A stretch of 64,000 bases of DNA from the NCBI RefSeq assembly GCF_963506605.1, contig NC_083288.1:32364001-32428000 (forward strand), in the 5' to 3' direction. The first letter of the stretch is position 1. Each line of letters begins with the position of its first letter. Below are positions 4,308 to 56,810 of the stretch, piece after piece. The notes beneath the pieces were generated by a model that did no database searches, had not been told where the DNA came from, and saw nothing but the letters and a program-made list of their open reading frames with translations. A program made the translations under genes and the position numbers. Source of the DNA: Zootoca vivipara. Taxonomy: Eukaryota.

Positions 4308-5608
4308 TTATTTGAAATTTTTACTGATTAGTAGTTCCCTTTTGTTCAAATGAGGCTTTATTACAATGACGTAACATTTTGGGGAAAAGATGCAGCCCAT
4401 CACCCCACTACTGGAGGCTAAGATTGAGAAGATCTGCACAGCTACTGTATATTTCCCCTTGGAACTCAGGTAGGTTGGAACAAAAGAGAACCAAACACTG
4501 CAAAATCCTAACATGCTGAAAGTGATGAACTTGGCTTCATTGAAACTATCTGGTAGCTTCCTGGCATGGAAAGCCACAGTGAAGCTGGCAAGTGCCAGGA
4601 AACCCATGTAGCCCAAAGCACAGAAAAACATGGTACTTGAACCCTCATTACATTCCAATACAATTTCATTAGGCATTGAATGTTTACCAACATTTGGGAA
4701 TGGGGGAGAGATTGCCAACCATGTAATACAAATAGCTGTTTGGATAAAGGAGCAAGAAATCACAACAGAGGTGGACAGTTTTCTACCCACCCACTTCCTC
4801 ACCCTGGATCCTGGCTTGGTGGCCATGAAAGCCAGAACCACAGTCAAGGTTTTTGCCAGCATGCAAGAAACAGCCACTGAGAAGATGATGGCAAAAGCAG
4901 TTTGCCGGAGAAGACACATTACCTTCTCAGGTCGGCCAATGAATAGCAATGCAGACAGGAAGCAGAACAAAAGAGAGATAAGGAGAATGTAGGAGAGAGA
5001 ACGGTTGTTGGCTTTGACAATGGGAGTGTCATAGTGCTTTGCAAAAATGCCTAGCACCAGAGCTGTGATCAAAGAACATGAAAGAGCAGCAGTAGCTAAA
5101 CTGATCCCCAATGGTTCTTCATATGACAAAAAGGTTACAAGCTTAGGAATGCATGTCTTTTTATCCTTGCTTGGATAATGATCTTCTTGATATTGAAAAC
5201 ATTCAGCCATGTCTGGAAGAGAAGATGAGATAATATTTCTCTGAATTATGTACACATTTTTTATAGTACTCTACAAAATCATTCTCACCATTCTTATCAG
5301 ATATCCTCTCTTCTGGACATGGAAAGCAATCATAGCAGCAGAATGGCTCCCCTTCCTTCTTTTTCTTGCTATAACCAGGAAAGCAGGAATCAGTGCATAC
5401 AGAAATGGGATGTGTCTAATGCGGCAAGGAAATAAGAGGGTGTTAATTTTTGTGTCACTTTAATGGCTGTTGTTTGTTAAGGAAGCTTAGCATGATTCAA
5501 ATAGAATATGGAGAAAAATGTGAGCATTAAAAAGTGCAACAATTGCCTCTCACTATAGCCTAAAGTGTGGAAGTTACCCACTGAGATACAGCTATTTATT
5601 TATTTACT

Positions 5609-5643
<35 letters not shown>

Positions 5644-8600
5644 TTGAATTTGGATACCGTCTTTCATCTGAAGATCTCAGGACAGTTCACAACATAAAAG
5701 TACAGAATAAAACCACAAAGTACAAAATGAAAACAAGAAGAGCAACATAAATCAATAACCTCCACCCTCCCACATCTAAAATGACATTGACTGTTAATCA
5801 GCCAAATCCCTTGTTGAAGAGAAACTTTATTGCCTGGCACATAAAGATATATAATGAAAGTGCCAGACAAACCTCCCTGGGAGAACATTTGCCAAACATG
5901 GAACCACTGCAGAAAATGCTCATTCTCATGTTGCTACTTTCCAACCCCTTGTGGATGAGGCACATGAAGAAGGGCCTCAGATGATGCTCACAGTCTTGGT
6001 CAGTTTATATGGGAAAAGAAGGTCTTGAGGTGAGCTATTTATAGGTCAAAACCAGACCCAACCAGACCAAGGCACCACCACATAGAATGTATGGCAGTAA
6101 TCAAGACTTGCATCTCATGAAGTACACAGTGATGGGGGTACAGAGGTGCCTTGCTAGACGAATGCCCTGTAAGACGAATTTTTCGCTTAACGAAGAGATT
6201 TTTCGAGTGGAGGTTGCCTCGCAAGACGAATTCATTTTGTGAAAAATTCGTCTAGTGAATTGCAGTTTCCCATAGGAATGCATTGAAATTCAATTAATGC
6301 GTTCCTATGGGCAAAAAATTAAAAAAAATTCAATGCATTCCTATGGGATTCGCTAGACGAATTTTTCGTAATACGAATTGACTCCCAGAACGAATTAAAT
6401 TCATCTAGCGAGGCACCACTGTACACAGTCCATTCATTGTCTAGTCAGCTTTCTCACTGTGTGTCACGTATTGTAAGTCTTATAATATTGCCATTTAATT
6501 GCCTCCTGGAAAGATAAGGGAGAGCTAGAAGATGTCTCTACAGTTCCAGTGGCAATTTTGTGATTAGTGATGGCGTTCCTGTGCACCAAATGGCTATACA
6601 CAATACAGCATTTCATATATGAAAAGTTTCTTTGGTGCCCCTGTGAAAATTCAAAATGAGGTTACTTCATTAACTATTGTATTTAAATCCTACCTCATTA
6701 AAACATCTGTGCCACACAATGGCATCTTCTTTAATGCTGATTGCTTGGTCTTCACTTGGAGCTTTGAGGTGAATATTTCCAACTTTCACTCTAACAAAAG
6801 ATTTGTTTGGGAATGTGACCCAGTTTACAATATCAAATCCTGCCACTAATACCCGATTCTGGTCAAAGGAAACCACATCCCCAGCACTGTTGTTAAACAA
6901 GCCTTGTTTCAGAAAGTTGTGGACCTAGATTGAAAAGGCAAATACTGACATTTAATAAAATGGTGTTAATGTACAACAAGAAGCTGAACCTTTCTCTCTT
7001 AAACAGTAAATAATACAGATATAATAACCCACACTTTTTCATTGCAGTAAATCACCTTTTCCAAAGTTAAGGGAATTATTAAAAACAAACTTTAAGAGAA
7101 GTAGAGAGGGAATATAGGACATTTTCAAATTCACCCATGCACCAAAAAGTATAGACAGGATAAGATGGGTTTCTTTGCAACTTACAACCAAGCAAACACA
7201 GTTAAGGACTTCATCACATAACATTTGAGGGGAGTAGCTAGGAGAGCGAGCTGTCCTTAAAAGGTAGTACTTTCCACAAATGCTTCCTTATGCTACTTTT
7301 TGGGGTTGAGTAGAAATGTTGGGGTACATTTTGATTGGGCATTTCATGTTCATTTTCTTAATTGAATAGGCTTGCAGTGACCTGGTTTATTTGGCATTTA
7401 CTGTGGGAAGGTAAGCATAACAACACATGGTGAGTGAAAAGTGGCATAGAAATATAATAAATGAAATGAACCTTTCTACCAGTTATTATTGTCAACTCTT
7501 CATTCTAGGTGTAGGGAAATGTATACAGCTCCCATTTTCAGCTTCCTCGCGTTGTTGGGCTTCAAATAAGATTAGCTGCAACCAGCATTACTAATGGTCA
7601 GGGATCTCACAAGCTGGAATCCAACAACCTCTAGAGTGCCAGCTTCCCCATTCCTGATGTACACTCTTTGCAACAACACTATACCTGGTTTTCCATCCCT
7701 AGTCCTTGTCCTATATACATCCCATGTACATCCTATGAACAGCAGCACCCAGGAAATTATTATGAGAGTGGCCCAGGGCATTATGAGGACTATTATCACC
7801 AAGTCTTCTGTATACAACTTCATCTGGGTTAGAGAATACCATAGGTCACTAGGAAAAGTTTGGGCAAATGCAGAAAATGTGAAAGGAAATGACATTGCCA
7901 GCCATTACCTGCCATGGTTGATTCCTCTGAAGTTTCTTTCTTTCTCCCTCTGCCATTGTTCTGTGTTTGGATGTGGATGAAAGCATATGCAGCGCATGGG
8001 CCACTGCATAGACAGCATTGTAGATACAGTAGCTGTGACCAGTCATGCTCATTTCAAAAATAGGTCCAGGAAGATTCTCCAGACTCTCATCTCCAGTACA
8101 GATATCACCCACCACATCATCCAAAGCAGAGCTTGGGAAAACACAGCCAAATGCCTGTCCCCAGAAATCTCTGATAAAACCATCATCTGTTGTACTGGAA
8201 GGGTTTCTGCCCTGAAGAAATTCTCTGAATCCCTGTACCTCATTGGAGTGGATTGAAAAAGATATAGCACCATGGAAGGCTTGGATATCCCAATCTCGTT
8301 GGTAGGATAATGTCTTGAACTCTATCTGTGCTGTCAGGATCCAGACTATACCTCTTGGCATTTGTGTTGTATATTCCACTTCTGGTAGATATAGCACCCA
8401 TCTCAAAAATATTATGGAATCTGCTTCTCCATAGCAAACAAGTGCATTGGCTGTGATGCTCATAACTCTGTCAAACAGTTCAACTCCTTTTTTTATTATG
8501 TCTCCATTCTCATCATCAAAGCTGAGGTTTTGGAGACACGTTTCTACAAAAGCTAAACATATGCCACTCTGGGATAATAAGGGAAGCATGTGTTGCAGAA

Positions 8601-11600
8601 ACATTTCTACCTTTTCATTGTCATCAGCAATGAATCCAATCCATATCCATTTGAAATGGATGAGTAACTGGAGAATCCCCAGGAACTGAATGCTATCATT
8701 TGGGACCATCTGATAGGATGAAAGGAATTCAGTGATATATGTCCTCTGAGGAGTGGAGCCATACAAAAGCTAAAAGTTTATTGGCAGAGGAGTGGGTGGA
8801 ATACCAAAAAGAAAAAGAAAAGAAATAAGATTTTTATATATATTAAAAGAAAACATATATATATAATGAATTCAAGTCAATTCATTCCTTTCAATGCTAT
8901 CTCAAATGGATTTAATTAGGACAAAGGTTTGTTTGTTTTTTAATTACACTATATGCTTCAATAGTCTTATCAATTCTGGGCAGACTGTCATTCCAAAAGC
9001 CACTGTTCTGTAATGAATCTGTTGATAGTACACTAATGTGCTTGTTTTGGAGATGTTGAATTTGGTACTATGGCATGATAAAGTTTTCAGTCATAATTTT
9101 GGGAGTATGAACAGGTATACTTCTTTTTCTTAATGGAGAAACAGGAAACTTTGGGTCCTTCCTGCTGCTCTGGCATTAGACCTCACTCCTATAGGCTGGA
9201 AAAGTACCACCATAATCAAGGAGTAGAAATGATTTGTGGCTAGAATAAAGAATCCCTTCTCCATTTCAGGTCAGACCAGAAAAATGTTCTGATTAAGTTT
9301 AAGGTAAAGGTAAAGGGACCCCTGACCATTAGGTCCAGTTGTGACTGACTCTGGGGTTGAGACGCTCATCTCTCGTTATTGGCCGAGGGAGCCGGCGTAC
9401 AGCTTCCAGGTCATGTGGCCAGCATGACAAAGCCACTTCTGGCAAACCAGAGCAGTGCATGGAAACGCCATTTACCTTCCCGCTGTAGCTGTACCTATTT
9501 ATCTATTTGTACTTTGACGTGCTTTTGAACTGCTAGGTGGGCAGGAGCTGGGACCAAGCAATGGGAGCTCACCCCATCGCAGGAATTCGAACCGCCAACC
9601 TTCTGATCAGCAAGCCCTAGGCTCTGTGGTTTAACCCACAGCGCCACCTGCGTCCCTGATTAAGTTTACTACATTCCCTGATTACATTACTAAATGGGTG
9701 GGGGGAACAGGATGACTTGATTATGTCATTCAAATGGGTTACATTATTTCTAGTTAATAGCAATTGTGGGCAAATAGTAGGAAAGACACCAGGACAATGG
9801 GAAACTAGGAGTTCCTTATGCAGATTTTGCATGGATCACCAATTAGATGTCATGTGTAGTTCCTTCTGATAATAACAATAAACAACTCTTTGTGGCTTCC
9901 AGCACATATAAAAACATAATAAAATGTCAAACATTAAAAACTTCCTGATACAGGGCTGCCTTCAGATGTCTTCTTAAAGTTGTGCCGTTCTTTATCTCAT
10001 TGACATCTGATGGGAGGGCGTTCCACAGGGAGGGCCTGGTTCCCTCTAACTTCACTACTTGCAGTGAGAAAACTGCTCGAAGACCCTCGGAGGTGAACCT
10101 CAGTATCTGGGCTAAACAGTGGGGGTCCTTCAGGTATACTGGGTTTTCCGTTATTTTATTTTTAAAATAAAAATGGCTGGTCAATAGTTCAATTAGGTGA
10201 TTACTACAAATGGTCTTATATGAGGTTCACTATAAATATTATCCTCACATACATCCAAGTGTAATAAAATGAATTGTGTTACCCTTGACAGCAAGCTTGT
10301 GGTTATTATTAACATCTGTACATTTCTCCTGTTGTGTTTACGTCCAGTAAACAGGCCATAACCTGGTGCGTTATGGGCTTCCCCAGTGCGATCATGCACC
10401 AAAAGTCCCAGGATCTGCAATGGCGTCTCTGTGTGTCTCTGCTATGCCTTACAGCGACTCCCGGATCCCGCAGAGTTTCTTCACAGCGTGTGTGTCTGCA
10501 GAAGGTGTCGGCACAATAATGAATCTCACGGACACAGCTACTTCTGTTCTAAGAAGCATTTATTTACAGCAGCAATAAATCAGCCGGGAGAGAGATCAGG
10601 CATGATGTTTCTCCGCTCGTGACCAAAAACGAAAGTAAAGAACCATTCACATAACAGACAATGCACCCCAGCGACAGGACGTCACTTCCACAAAGCTATT
10701 AACCCTGTAAGCTCTGGGTCTCCTCACATCTTTTTTGTCACTAAATAAAATGTCCTTCCTTGGTAAGAGTAGGGCTATGGCAATGGAAGTTGTGATCCCA
10801 AACCAGAACAGAATTGTACTTGCATTGTACTGAGCATTGTAATTACTCAGCAGCAGAATACTTCCTTCTAAAATATTATAAAGGAGAATGTGAGATCCAA
10901 ATGCAAAAGGATAGCAAATGGATCCAGGAATGTTTGAAATGTCCCTCACAATGAACAATAGGCTAATTAATGGCCCTAAAGAACTTTAAGCACTTTTGAA
11001 TAACTCTTCTTTATGGCCTAAAAGTATATTTTGGTCTTTTCATCCACCATAAATGATTTACTGTTTTCCCTTATCTGCATATCTTCTTCTTCTTCATTTG
11101 GCAATCACTCATAGCTCAGTAAGATTGTCTTCCATAAACCTGGTTTTAACAGTTGGCCCATAAGTGACTGTGGAGACAATTCTGGATCCCCGCATCCTTC
11201 CACAGTGGGGACATAGGTCTCCAGGAGGGAGTTGATCATGGTGAGGGTGTGTCAAGCATGCCTTGCTCTTAGCACATTTCTCCCTTGCGTTCTGAGTACT
11301 AGCATCTTCAAAACCCATGACACTTTTGATAAAGGTTGTTCTCCAATTGGAGCACTCGCAGGTGAGTGTTTCCCAGTTGTTGGTGTATCTGCATATGGCA
11401 TTCATATAAATGGTAAGGTCTACATGTTTCCATGAAATGTACCTATTTCTGTCTTTCAAAGATTAGGCTACATCTGGTAAAAAAAGAAAAAAAGGGGGAA
11501 AACAACAACCGTACATTTCTAAACTCTGCACACACATCCTACCTGTGGAATCTTGTAGATACTCAAAACATTAGCTATGTGGTGAGACGTTTCTGAGTGA

Positions 11601-13367
11601 AGTCCCCCAATGACTGAAATAAGATTATCCTGGAAGTCACATTTATAGTTGGGTATAAACCTGTCTCTTGTTGAAAGAAGTTTCATTGTAGCATGATAGG
11701 TGAATGCAGCACTGGAATATATGTCATACATATGAAATCCCAGGGTGACATTTGGTAGGATCTTGGGGTTTTCGTTGATCTCGTTTATAGCAAACACCAA
11801 GGCCAGGGTGTGCTGGTAGTTCTTAGTCACTACACTATGAAAAATAAAAAAATTCCTTCAGTAGCACCTTAAAGACCAACTAAGTTTATATTTTGGTATG
11901 AGCTTTCGTGTGCATGCACACTTCTTCACTTCTTCTTCTGAAGAAGTGTGCATGCACACGAAAGCTCATACCAAAATATAAACTTAGTTGGTCTTTAAGG
12001 TGCTACTGAAGGAATTTTTTTATTTTGCTTCGACTCAGACCAACACGGCTACCTACCTGTAACTACACTATGAAAAGATTTGCATTTTGTGTTATATTTA
12101 TTTTCTAACTTTGTAATAATATTTCTATTGCATCATGCACATTTCTCATTATTATTAAGTTATTTATTGTTGTTGGCTTTGACCAGTACAGTACTGGAGT
12201 CCAGCACTTCATAAAGTAATCCTTTTTTCAGGTGCTCAGCATTATGTTAGCATATCAAATATACATCAACAAGTAAGGTACCATGTCACCTGGATTAAGA
12301 ATGAGTTCAGAACTGTAGACTTCATAATTTATCTTATAATCCCGTTGCTTGGTCCCAGCTCCTGCCAACCTAGCAGTTCGAAAGCACGTCAAAATGCAAG
12401 TAGATAAATAGGAACCGCTACAGCGGGAAGGTAAATGGCGTTTCCATGTGCTGCTCTGGTTCGCCAGAAGCGGCTTTGTCATGCTGGCCACATGACCTGG
12501 AAGCTATACGCCGGCTCCCTCGGCCAATAATGCAAGATGAGCGTGCAACCCCAGAGTCGGTCACGACTGGACCTAATGGTCAGGGGTCCCTTTACCCTTT
12601 ACCTTTATCTACTTATTTAGCCTTCTTTCCCATACCTTATCAGCAATAAAATAAAACAGATCACAAAATTCTATTTTCAAATGCCTATTTATTCTATTTT
12701 CAATTGCCACATTATCTCTATGTGGAATATTTCCAGGGTGTGTTGTATTGAGACTCTATATTCAAGTTCTAAGCTTAAATATTTCCTGTCCCATAAAATG
12801 AAAAAGTACTTAAAATGCCTCTCTCTTTCTCATTTATTTTGCTACGACTTGGGTCCATCCTTCTGCAATTGATGGTCATGCAACTCCAAAGTAGCAATGA
12901 AGCTGGATTACAATACCATATCAATATTAGGCAATACCACTGATGCATAAACATCATGCTTGCTAAAGCTGTGGCCCTTAACAGCTGTACTTTCTTGTCA
13001 TCTTGGAGTGTGGGTCAACATAGAAATACCTTAACACATCATGCTAAAAGGTTTAGTAATGAAAATACATCTTTCATGCACTGCTACAGAACAAATTTGC
13101 CAATTCTATTGGGACCTTGTAAGTACACGGTAGAAAAATTTTTTTTTCTTACATTGATTCTTCAGATAGTGTCTGGGGAGGTTGCTGGTCAAAAGCCTTT
13201 GGACTGGAAAGGATTATGCTCTGAGAACCAATGCTTCCAAAGATGATGTCTCCAGGCTGATAATACCTGTGAAGAATATCAAAGGGTTCCTGCATTCCAT
13301 ATTTAACAACAGAAGTGGCCAATATTTGGGACAGTAGGAGCATATGCAATACCACTGATGCAGGCAT
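4308..13367 (-). CDS. V2R gene B, complete 6-exon model, 876 aa
   Basis: Exons 13367-13153, 11834-11543, 8769-7909, 6924-6694, 5415-5289, 5212-4308; all GT-AG, total 2631 nt open. Venus flytrap, Cys-rich domain (CCYDC.PC) and 7TM ([27 protein letters not shown]). Confidence 0.9.
5592..6030 (-). mobile_element. L2 LINE 3' end with (ATTT)n tail
   Basis: (ATTT)n 5593-5643 followed by degenerate L2 3' sequence similar to the other L2 copies here. Confidence 0.55.
6141..6421. mobile_element. Tc1/mariner (Tigger-like) MITE
   Basis: TIRs cagaggtgccttgctaga / tctagcgaggcaccactg, TA on both sides; same family as 57526-57813. Confidence 0.85.
9302..9656 (-). mobile_element. Full-length Sauria SINE (lacertid type)
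   Basis: 5' gggacgcaggtggcgctgtgggttaaacc with tRNA-like boxes, 3' (acctt)n tail, 12-bp TSD tgattaagttta (9290-9301 / 9657-9668). Confidence 0.92.
9900..10143 (-). mobile_element. L2 LINE 3' fragment
   Basis: [24 protein letters not shown] matches the end of the L2 ORF at 35040-35528. Confidence 0.8.
10330..10728 (-). mobile_element. Possible solo LTR
   Basis: CpG-richer block with TG..CA candidate ends and minus-strand AATAAA; TSD not convincing. Confidence 0.3.
11083..11385 (-). mobile_element. RTE-clade LINE 3' end
   Basis: C-terminal CPHCGR..GSRI motif, (GAA)n tail, 11-bp TSD tatctgcatat (11072-11082 / 11386-11396). Confidence 0.82.
11844..12061. mobile_element. Penelope-derived palindromic mini-element with hammerhead core
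   Basis: 88-bp perfect inverted arms 11841-11928 / 11939-12026; core ctgaaga-a-gtgtgcatgcacac-gaaa-gctc at 11938-11967; 15-bp direct repeat actacactatgaaaa on both sides. Confidence 0.8.
12340..12606 (+). mobile_element. 5'-truncated Sauria SINE
   Basis: Reverse complement of the 9302 element body, ending ggggtccctttaccctttaccttt. Confidence 0.9.
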
Positions 13368-26388: not shown

Positions 26389-26560
26389 ATTCGGGTAGCT
26401 AACCGTGTTGGTCTGACACTGTTGAAATAAAAATAAAATAAAATAAATTGTCCACTAGCACCTTATAGACCAACTATGTTTGTTCTGGTATAAGCTTATA
26501 CGAGAACAAACTTAGTTGGTCTATAAGGTACTACCCGACATATTCTTATTCCTATTCTTA
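26389..26560. mobile_element. Second Penelope-derived palindromic element, hammerhead core deleted
   Basis: Arms tagcaccttatagaccaacta.. / ..tagttggtctataaggtacta centred on tataagcttata; flanked by tgtattaggag repeats. Confidence 0.75.
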
Positions 26561-55413: not shown

Positions 55414-56001
55414 TTATACAGACTTTCGTCTTATAATCTGTTCCTTATCATTCAGTTCAGGCCTTAAAACAATGATGTAACATTTAGGAGAAAAGATGCA
55501 ACCCAGCACCCCAGCACTGGAGGCTAAGATAGAAAAGATCTCCACAGCTACCATGTACTTCCCCTTCGTGCTCAGGTAGGATGGAATAAAGGATAACCAA
55601 ACACTGCAAAAGACCAACATGCTGAAAGTGATGAATTTGGCTTCATTGAAACTGTCAGGCAACTTCCTGGCAAGGAAAGCCACAGTGAAACTGGCAATAG
55701 CCAGAAAGCCCATGTAACCCAGGACACAGGAAAACATAGTTACAGAACCCTCATTGCATTCTAGAACAATTTCTCCATAAGTTGAGTGCTTATCGACATC
55801 TGGGAATGGGGGAGAAAATGCCAACCACATAAGACAAATGGTTGCTTGAATAAAGGAGCAGGAAATAACAATGGAGTTGGCTAGCCTCTTCCCCACCCAT
55901 TTCCTCATCCTGGATCCTGGCTTGGTGGCCATGAAAGCCAGAATCACTGTGATAGTTTTTGCCAGCACACCAGAAACAGCCACTGAGAAGATGATGCCAA
56001 A
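55414..56001 (-). pseudogene. V2R gene F: truncated exon 6 only
   Basis: Near-identical to the C/D/E 7TM exon from [10 protein letters not shown] to the stop. The first ~320 nt of the exon and its acceptor are replaced by L1. Intron-5 homology only 56826-57052; no exons 1-5 found before gene G. Confidence 0.88.
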
Positions 56002-56810
56002 TGGATTTGGGAAATCCCATTCAAATGGAAAGATGGGAAATGTCTGGAAAACATCATGGAAATTTATGGCGTCAGAGGGAATTAGAGAAAATTCGATCAA
56101 GATGTTTTATAAATGGTACCTGATGCCAGTCAAAATCCATAAAATGTATAAAACTAAAGACAATCGTTGCTGGAGATGGCAAAAGGAGGCAGGGACCTTT
56201 CTACATGTATGGTGGCATTGCGATAAAATAAAACCCTTTTGGAATGAGATATTAGAGGAATTTTTTAAAAAATATTTAAATATATTTTTTTTTTTTTAAA
56301 AAAAACCCCCTGTCTTTCCTATAAGTAATGATAGAAATAGATGAAGAGAAAACCAAACAGGATGAAAAGGATTTTCTGTATGCGGGGGCAGCGGCGAGAA
56401 TTTTAATTGCCAAATTTTGGAAAAAAACAAAAAATCCTGAGTGTTAGAGATTGGCAAGAAAAGGTAATTAGTTATATAGATCTGGCCAAATTGACAAATT
56501 CAATCGGGGGGGGGGGTAGTAATAAGAAATTTAATTACAATTCGGAAATTTTTGGAGAGTATCTGAAAAGAGTTGGGTTTAATTCAAATATTCTGTAGAG
56601 AATCTAGATGAAAAGTAAGGGAAAGCAGTATAAAGGTAGGCAAACCAGTAGCCGAAGACAAGCGGAAGTCGATTTATAGAAGAATCTGCAAGATATTAAA
56701 AGACGGTATTTTATTTACAAGTATTAAGATATGATTTATTTGAATTAGGTATACGAGCTTGATATTTGTTAGTAGATTTCGATATTCGTTAGTAATGTTT
56801 TGTGTTGTCT
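56002..56810 (+). mobile_element. L1 LINE 3' end disrupting gene F
   Basis: [29 protein letters not shown] motif. Confidence 0.9.

Follow-up and report, generated by a model that had tools for sequence, protein, structure and literature searches.

The present analysis shows that the V2R gene B in the window, i.e. the whole stretch of 64,000 nucleotides that was analysed, carries at its exon-2 splice acceptor an insertion of a Penelope pLTR. Our data indicate that this young and polymorphic insertion landed there by chance and is probably a loss-of-function splice mutation of gene B and not a switch. All positions given are those of the window.

The insert and the family it comes from

The sequence-only reading had described a perfect 88-bp inverted repeat with a 10-nt loop lying between two acceptor-bearing copies of a short sequence, and this description was borne out. 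The arms (11841-11928 and 11939-12026) are 88 nt each with 100% complementarity, the loop is 10 nt, and the hairpin fold has a z of -23, with none of 100 shuffles being equally stable. The 15-nt direct repeat lies at 11829-11843 and 12062-12076 (offset 233), and the net extra sequence from the insertion is 233 nt. On the minus strand each copy of the repeat carries an AG preceding 'V-V-T', and both read as an acceptor AG followed by an exon start, at 11834 and 12067; gene B does possess the two acceptors that had been proposed. Left arm and TSD have 3 nt in common, and an unpaired 35-nt tail (12027-12061) separates the right arm from TSD copy 2. Since the ends of the element share 3-4 nt with both TSD ends, the true TSD would be 11-15 nt long. 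The insert consists of the last 128 nt of the terminal repeat plus an 88-nt inverted arm, without an ORF. The 40 bases upstream of 12067 look like the exon-2 acceptors of paralogs, which marks the distal acceptor as native. The parts of the insert, and the putative native branch-point region next to it, are as follows.

11829..11843, unstranded: TSD copy 1, with the proximal in-frame acceptor AG at 11836-11835 (minus strand); exon 2 from 11834
11841..11928, minus strand: untailed, inverted, 5'-truncated pLTR arm; gives the pre-mRNA U-tract 11852-11841, inside the stem
11862-11856, minus strand: branch-point-like site of the proximal acceptor, in the stem, by likeness to the consensus
11900..11929, minus strand: pre-mRNA-strand hammerhead copy, C3 changed to G, without stem I
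11929..11938, unstranded: 10-nt loop at the head-to-head junction, standing in place of the family's stem-I 5' strand
11938..11971, plus strand: minimal hammerhead core (CUGAAGA, bulged A, palindromic stem II, GAAA, palindromic stem III, stem I 3' strand)
11939..12026, plus strand: tailed pLTR arm, pairing with 11841-11928
12027..12061, plus strand: Penelope tail of about 35 nt, at one end only; antisense donors at 12056 (strong) and 12052 (weak)
12062..12076, unstranded: TSD copy 2, with the distal native acceptor, exon start 12067
12090..12096, minus strand: putative native branch-point region, placed by position and by the paralog acceptors

The suspected Penelope-type origin was supported by copies of the family that adjoin an ORF encoding a CX4CX2C linker and a GIY-YIG domain. 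At two loci (L054 and L069) the same core follows about 200 nt after the end of the ORF; its GIY-YIG domain scores 25.4 bits in Pfam against a cut-off of 22.6, and the linker, CNKPRCQLC, lies ahead of the endonuclease. GIY-YIG matches were found at 8 of the 30 loci L051-L080, two of which overlap one place. As for the reverse transcriptase, within the 1.5-kb flanks covered the piece upstream in L069 gave no Pfam match. The CX2-5CxxC linker motif and the Neptune/Nematis layout are defined in passages of PMC8557442, and from the GIY-YIG ORF together with the linker the element is assigned to a Neptune/Nematis-type (EN+) Penelope-like family.

The genome of 1.44 Gb contains the 34-nt hammerhead core 11938-11971 exactly 17,230 times without mismatch (control 0), and a tight pattern search returned 695 head-to-head hairpins with short loops genome-wide (control 0). 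When 40 of 440 candidates for the 128-nt tailed arm were scored, all 40 matched at 98-100%, 20 had an adjacent inverted partner and three other loci were identical over 128/128 nt; on this identity the insertion is dated as young. For sibling anatomy 40 loci were examined, and 21 of them, the gene B locus included, are palindromic, with a one-sided tail in 18/21, a TSD of 11-15 nt in 14/21 and a net insert of 192-272 nt; that no TSD was found for 7/21 is partly because arm extension halts at mismatches. The family normally produces inserts with head-to-head arms, a one-sided tail and a TSD. As the hairpin, the U-tract, the tail donor and the size are family-wide, nothing is special at gene B except the target. 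Passages of PMC3846280, PMC8557442 and PMC11167929 describe an inverted truncated pLTR, a one-sided 30-40-nt tail, a TSD and junction palindromes as the norm, and the origin of the Penelope-like element tail is treated in part of PMC11167929. Other arrangements of Penelope repeats were also observed. At L052/L053, L061/L062 and L063/L064 terminal-repeat copies in inverted orientation are separated by 0.5-1 kb of sequence that is either foreign or internal and rearranged. Within the window, 28201-30228 (minus strand) is a different Penelope-like element with three ORF pieces, an RVT_1 match (E 3.8e-6, just under the cut-off) and a GIY-YIG-like end, and without the core of the gene B insert; 26394-26534 holds a related Penelope repeat as a head-to-head palindrome that is older and has diverged, and exon 1 of the next V2R gene lies about 0.7 kb downstream of it.

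The hammerhead had been read as intact in its plus-strand core with the stem-I partner lost, and as lacking the first C in its pre-mRNA-strand copy, and both observations stand. The plus-strand core (11938-11967) agrees with CUGANGA / GAAA / UH with helix II, and the minus-strand copy has G at C3. On the plus strand helix I is reduced to 1 bp, on the minus strand to 0 bp; in the unbiased set L051-L080, TGTAT precedes the core in 30/38 matches, giving a 4-bp helix I in 24/31 distinct copies. The predicted fold pairs both cores within the 88-bp stem. In an Rfam scan the hammerhead models were unmatched at E up to 10, and the 31 matches below the gathering score were headed by microRNA hairpin models because the stem is perfect. 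As reported in passages of PMC11167929, the anole PLE ribozyme, which requires protein as well, no longer cleaves when it carries C3G, and whole monomers likewise gave no cleavage; passages of PMC4209133 report no cleavage by single minimal hammerheads. With stem I lost and the cores locked in the hairpin stem, the ribozyme is predicted to be unable to fold here, and the hammerhead is probably a dead remnant without a role in the splicing question. Elsewhere in the genome, four tandem exact hammerhead cores with a period of 598 nt (G000:C1:2777825-2779652) form a candidate retrozyme-like array of the same family, a concept set out in part in 10.64898/2026.07.22.740005.

Distribution of the insert and state of gene B

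A comparison across individuals, which had been suggested as a check, found the insertion present in two samples (X1 and X2) and missing from two (X4 and X6). Five DNA runs, drawn from 10 that contained at least half of the words, represent five samples under one species label; the DNA comparison did not take in X8 or the second run of either S1 or S4. In X1 and X2, contigs 11333-11864 and 12040-12368 enter the element from both sides. The junction contigs have depths of 57.5 and 42.1 in X1 (flanks 53-55) and of 33 and 32.4 in X2 (flanks 29.5-31), and the insertion is apparently homozygous in both; X1 may be the source of the assembly itself. In X6 the right-flank contig fits exactly from 12062 and its preceding 20 letters are non-element; taken as left flank, these letters give an overlap of 30 nt with the contig that ends at 11838, as much as other neighbouring contigs in that table share. 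X4, from another study, has 32 non-element letters beyond 12062, and here the overlap is 22 nt and needs a short contig outside those listed. In X4 and X6, then, the element is missing at the right junction, which points to an empty site. In X3 a junction contig is absent among the contigs listed, and there is a hole at 12118-12204. Thus the insertion is not fixed, being found in two DNA samples and missing from two of the four resolved, and it is usable as a presence/absence marker.

Intron 1 of gene B contains a second presence/absence polymorphism, a high-copy SINE at 12340-12605 that is presumably of Sauria type. It is absent from the X6 contig, and contigs of X1-X4 enter its right end. 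Since X4 has the right junction of the SINE and X6 is without the SINE, the Penelope insert is likely the younger of the two. Near the native branch point the empty-site samples also differ, with A>G at 12094 in X4 and a 13-nt deletion at 12108 in X6.

The exons of gene B are listed below.

13153..13367, minus strand: exon 1, ATG at 13367, Tyr at codon 23
11543..11834, minus strand: exon 2, ANF_receptor domain, above the Pfam cut-off
7909..8769, minus strand: exon 3, ANF_receptor domain, above the Pfam cut-off
6694..6924, minus strand: exon 4
5289..5415, minus strand: exon 5, NCD3G cysteine-rich domain, above the Pfam cut-off
4308..5212, minus strand: exon 6, 7tm_3, above the Pfam cut-off, Tyr for a conserved Cys

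By domain architecture and position in a tandem array, gene B is classed as a V2R class C GPCR. When the six exons are joined through the proximal acceptor they give 876 codons with zero stops and canonical GT/AG. The earlier description of an otherwise open receptor gene therefore holds for the reading frame (876 aa, no stop), but two near-invariant cysteines have been lost. Codon 23 of exon 1 (13301-13299) is Tyr in gene B and Cys in 23/24 neighbouring paralogs, and early in exon 6 (about 5192) gene B has Tyr against Cys in 44/44 paralog exons. In addition, Val stands at a Gly kept in 42/42 and Gln at a Glu kept in 48/49 neighbouring paralogs; the departures in exon 6 number 8, which is high but not extreme, being exceeded by 4/41 full exons. 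The loss of the cysteines, the Gly and the Glu, together with broken neighbouring genes, makes weak constraint on gene B plausible. The codon 23 variant is absent among those listed for the empty-site samples, so that the Tyr is likely older than the insertion. In X6, 4/6 of the listed exon-2 differences are synonymous, and there is no stop among the listed exon 1-2 variants. ORFs 11109-11462 and 10647-10985 were considered as a broken exon 3 and rejected, exon 3 being 8769-7909. A paralog of gene B close enough to provide an internal empty site was not found among 40 of 301 candidates, the best reaching 75%. Intron 2 contains at about 11074-11460 a high-copy repeat fragment, presumably RTE-type, whose translation resembles a LINE ORF C-terminus, and a T-run with an AG near 11472, at the edge of this fragment, is a possible cryptic acceptor.

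The cluster region that was surveyed comprises 658 kb around the window, with 45 exon-2 hits and about 43 genes, and a stop or split exon was seen in at least 4 of these about 43 V2R genes. Passages of PMC3590772 describe squamate V2R repertoires as large and with putative pseudogene transcripts; the size of the V2R array and the nature of the repeat point to a lizard as host. The window also has, at 55414-56106, a 5'-truncated V2R exon-6 copy without the other exons adjoining. The 33 element hits in the cluster resolve into 24 units (9 adjacent inverted pairs and 15 singles), none of which is exonic against 4.0 expected (P = 0.013, target bias ignored). The chance of a TSD spanning an acceptor in the cluster region is about 0.004 per insertion and 0.09 among 24, so that such a hit is to be expected somewhere in a genome scan. 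If a genome has some 200,000 acceptors, TSDs spanning one would number about 30 among the 17,230 copies before selection.

Splice-site choice at gene B

It had been proposed that the distal acceptor keeps its native context at the cost of the frame, and that the proximal one is in frame with its pyrimidine tract inside the stem. Both points were upheld and could be refined: the distal route meets a stop 15 nt into the element, at codon 78, and the sole branch-point-like site of the proximal acceptor is buried in the stem as well. By translation, the acceptor 12067 leads to a stop at codon 78, 12062 at 75 and 12056 at 73. The donor CAG/GTAGGT lies 11 nt past the distal AG, as had been pointed out; the 11-nt micro-exon it defines leads to a stop at codon 77, and skipping of exon 2 shifts the frame with a stop at 126. 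The frame is kept by 11834, by 11855 and by the micro-exons 12062-12057 (6 nt) and 12067-12053 (15 nt) when joined to 11834. All in-frame routes depend on a branch point and a U-tract that lie within the predicted stem.

The probability of being unpaired is 0.000 for the proximal U-tract and 0.036 for the branch-point-like site, which lies 20-30 bp inside the 88-bp perfect duplex. Opening of the branch point, U-tract and AG is predicted to cost 40.6 kcal/mol at the proximal and 4.8 at the distal acceptor, and 6.0-14.9 kcal/mol in 42 paralog exon-2 acceptors (43/45 exon-2 hits were scored), all of these being equilibrium predictions that take neither proteins nor editing into account. At its U-tract end the stem has A-U pairs only, and 15.0 kcal/mol is predicted to open that part. 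An acceptor matrix, built from 159 local exon 3-6 acceptors that are paralogous and non-independent, gave 1.4 for the proximal acceptor (above 28/41 paralog exon-2 sites) and -4.6 for the native one (above 5/41). The antisense AG/GTAGGT at 12056 in the Penelope tail, a candidate ratchet point, exceeds 34/41 paralogs as an acceptor and 78/91 distinct local donors as a donor, matching the U1 consensus at 8/9 positions; the donor at 12052 is weak (above 4/91 local donors). There are seven AGs between the native branch point and the stem. Three RNA runs of unknown tissue, sampled at about 6 in 100 of each read, showed depth only on two repeats and zero depth on exon 1, the element-free exon 2 bins and the unique intron, and are uninformative on expression; RNA reads on the hairpin arms derive from other element copies.

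In the reading that we regard as probable, the two arms would pair during transcription, and the proximal branch point and U-tract would become hidden. The spliceosome would then turn to the native branch point, which is open, and to the AG it meets first, at 12067, or else 12062 or 12056, all of which give early stops; alternatively exon 2 would be skipped. In either case the mRNA would go to nonsense-mediated decay. The predicted costs of 40.6 and 4.8 kcal/mol point to this outcome of native-site use or exon skipping, followed by mRNA decay. It is consistent with passages of PMC3219598, where NF1 acceptors with an Alu in the AG or pyrimidine tract gave exon skipping in 4/4, and of PMC3976383, where a 238-nt SINE at the FAM161A acceptor led to skipping. 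The insertion allele likely rose by drift in one lineage, and we propose that it could do so because gene B was already weakly constrained. On the other hand, site sequence taken by itself favours the proximal acceptor (1.4 versus -4.6), the stem is built of A-U pairs alone at its U-tract end, no stop has closed the frame, the allele is apparently homozygous in two samples and the family avoids coding exons in the cluster.

Several of these points are what would be expected if the insertion were tolerated, with the element's U-tract making a better acceptor, splicing going mostly and directly to the in-frame 11834, the A-U-rich stem end being opened by splicing factors or editing, and the allele near neutral. 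The proximal score above the native one and the open frame agree with this, as do the apparent homozygosity of X1 and X2 and a cluster without exonic insertions of the family, since such avoidance suggests that null V2R alleles are usually removed. However, the branch-point-like site is deep in the duplex, at a predicted 40.6 kcal/mol far beyond the 42 paralogs, and with seven AGs before the stem, looping out of the hairpin would not bring in the proximal AG; a tolerated insertion is thus considered rather unlikely, though worth keeping in view. That the insertion changes nothing, gene B having been non-functional or untranscribed before it, is improbable. The two near-invariant cysteines and other conserved residues that were lost, a codon 23 change that likely predates the insertion among the variants listed for the empty-site samples, and the stops or split exons of neighbouring genes speak for it, but the six open exons with canonical GT/AG, and the predominantly synonymous listed exon-2 differences of X6 with no listed stop, speak against it.

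Splicing could also proceed in two steps that mask the element, exon 1 joining the AG at 12056 and regenerating a donor there, or the 6- or 15-nt micro-exon being included, after which the remaining element would be excised as an intron of 218-222 nt with the TSD-derived AG at its 3' end. The strong AG/GTAGGT serving as acceptor and donor, the in-frame micro-exons 12062-12057 and 12067-12053, and the introner geometry of an element donor with a TSD AG (described in passages of PMC11282704) would fit such a course. It is made quite improbable by the second step, which still uses the buried branch point and U-tract, and by the obvious 11-nt micro-exon, which stops at 77, and the weak 12052 donor. 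A further version, in which the terminal hairpin acts as an accidental introner-like cassette and the 12056 ratchet restores the exact exon 1-exon 2 junction under the gating of editing, is very doubtful; in it the antisense tail would bring AG/GTAGGT, the untailed arm the U-tract and the TSD the AG, and the buried branch point would be required here too. If true, a retrotransposon would have created a recursive splice site that is observed in a vertebrate while still polymorphic.

The strong form of the sequence-only reading was a structure- or editing-dependent splice switch that had evolved to tune the receptor. The required parts exist, and intronic inverted Alu pairs can be edited and turn a constitutive downstream exon into an alternative one, according to PMC2533698. 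But no part is tailored to gene B, the alternative outputs are nonsense and the ribozyme is predicted to be unable to fold. An evolved RNA switch would be expected to be fixed and conserved and to show locus-specific or compensatory changes; instead the parts are family-wide, the insert has zero divergence from its sibling copies and it is missing in 2/4 resolved samples under the same species label. An evolved switch is therefore hardly credible. What survives of the proposed switch or silencer is passive silencing, which is plausible because the hairpin is predicted to hide the in-frame acceptor.

As a probable loss-of-function mutation the insertion is a clean and unremarkable case in which a large receptor family may lose one of its members to a young retrotransposon. 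It also offers a natural experiment, one gene having alleles with and without a hairpin over a duplicated acceptor, and this allele pair directly tests sequence strength against RNA structure in the choice of a 3' splice site. A greater importance would follow only if the element proves to splice itself out.

Comparison with known systems

The insert resembles introners, as described in passages of PMC11282704 and PMC12130899, in its inverted ends, element donor and TSD-derived AG. The layout of an introner or recursive site is found at gene B, with the element donor and TSD AG in place and AG/GT juxtaposed. In contrast to introners, the gene B insert sits at an existing acceptor and not in an exon; the introners in those passages are mostly DNA transposons, and neither text contains the word Penelope. 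With the metazoan PLE minimal hammerheads in passages of PMC4209133 the family shares the core boxes, the bulged base between 9 and 10.1, a long helix II and the palindromic 15.2-16.2, whereas the gene B cores are without a plus-strand helix I and paired with each other.

Its likeness to EN+ Penelope-like insertions such as Pen2a_Av (passages of PMC3846280 and PMC8557442) lies in the unequal head-to-head arms, the tail, the TSD and the hammerhead; the gene B copy differs in having no ORF and in lying on a host splice acceptor. In this last respect it is comparable to the NF1 Alu (PMC3219598) and the canine FAM161A SINE (PMC3976383), where, in the passages concerned, a short element with a TSD likewise sits at the AG or pyrimidine tract and pushes the branch point away, the outcome being exon skipping. 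Unlike these, gene B keeps a complete native acceptor upstream by way of the TSD, and its element, which pairs perfectly with itself as a hairpin, contributes a donor of its own.
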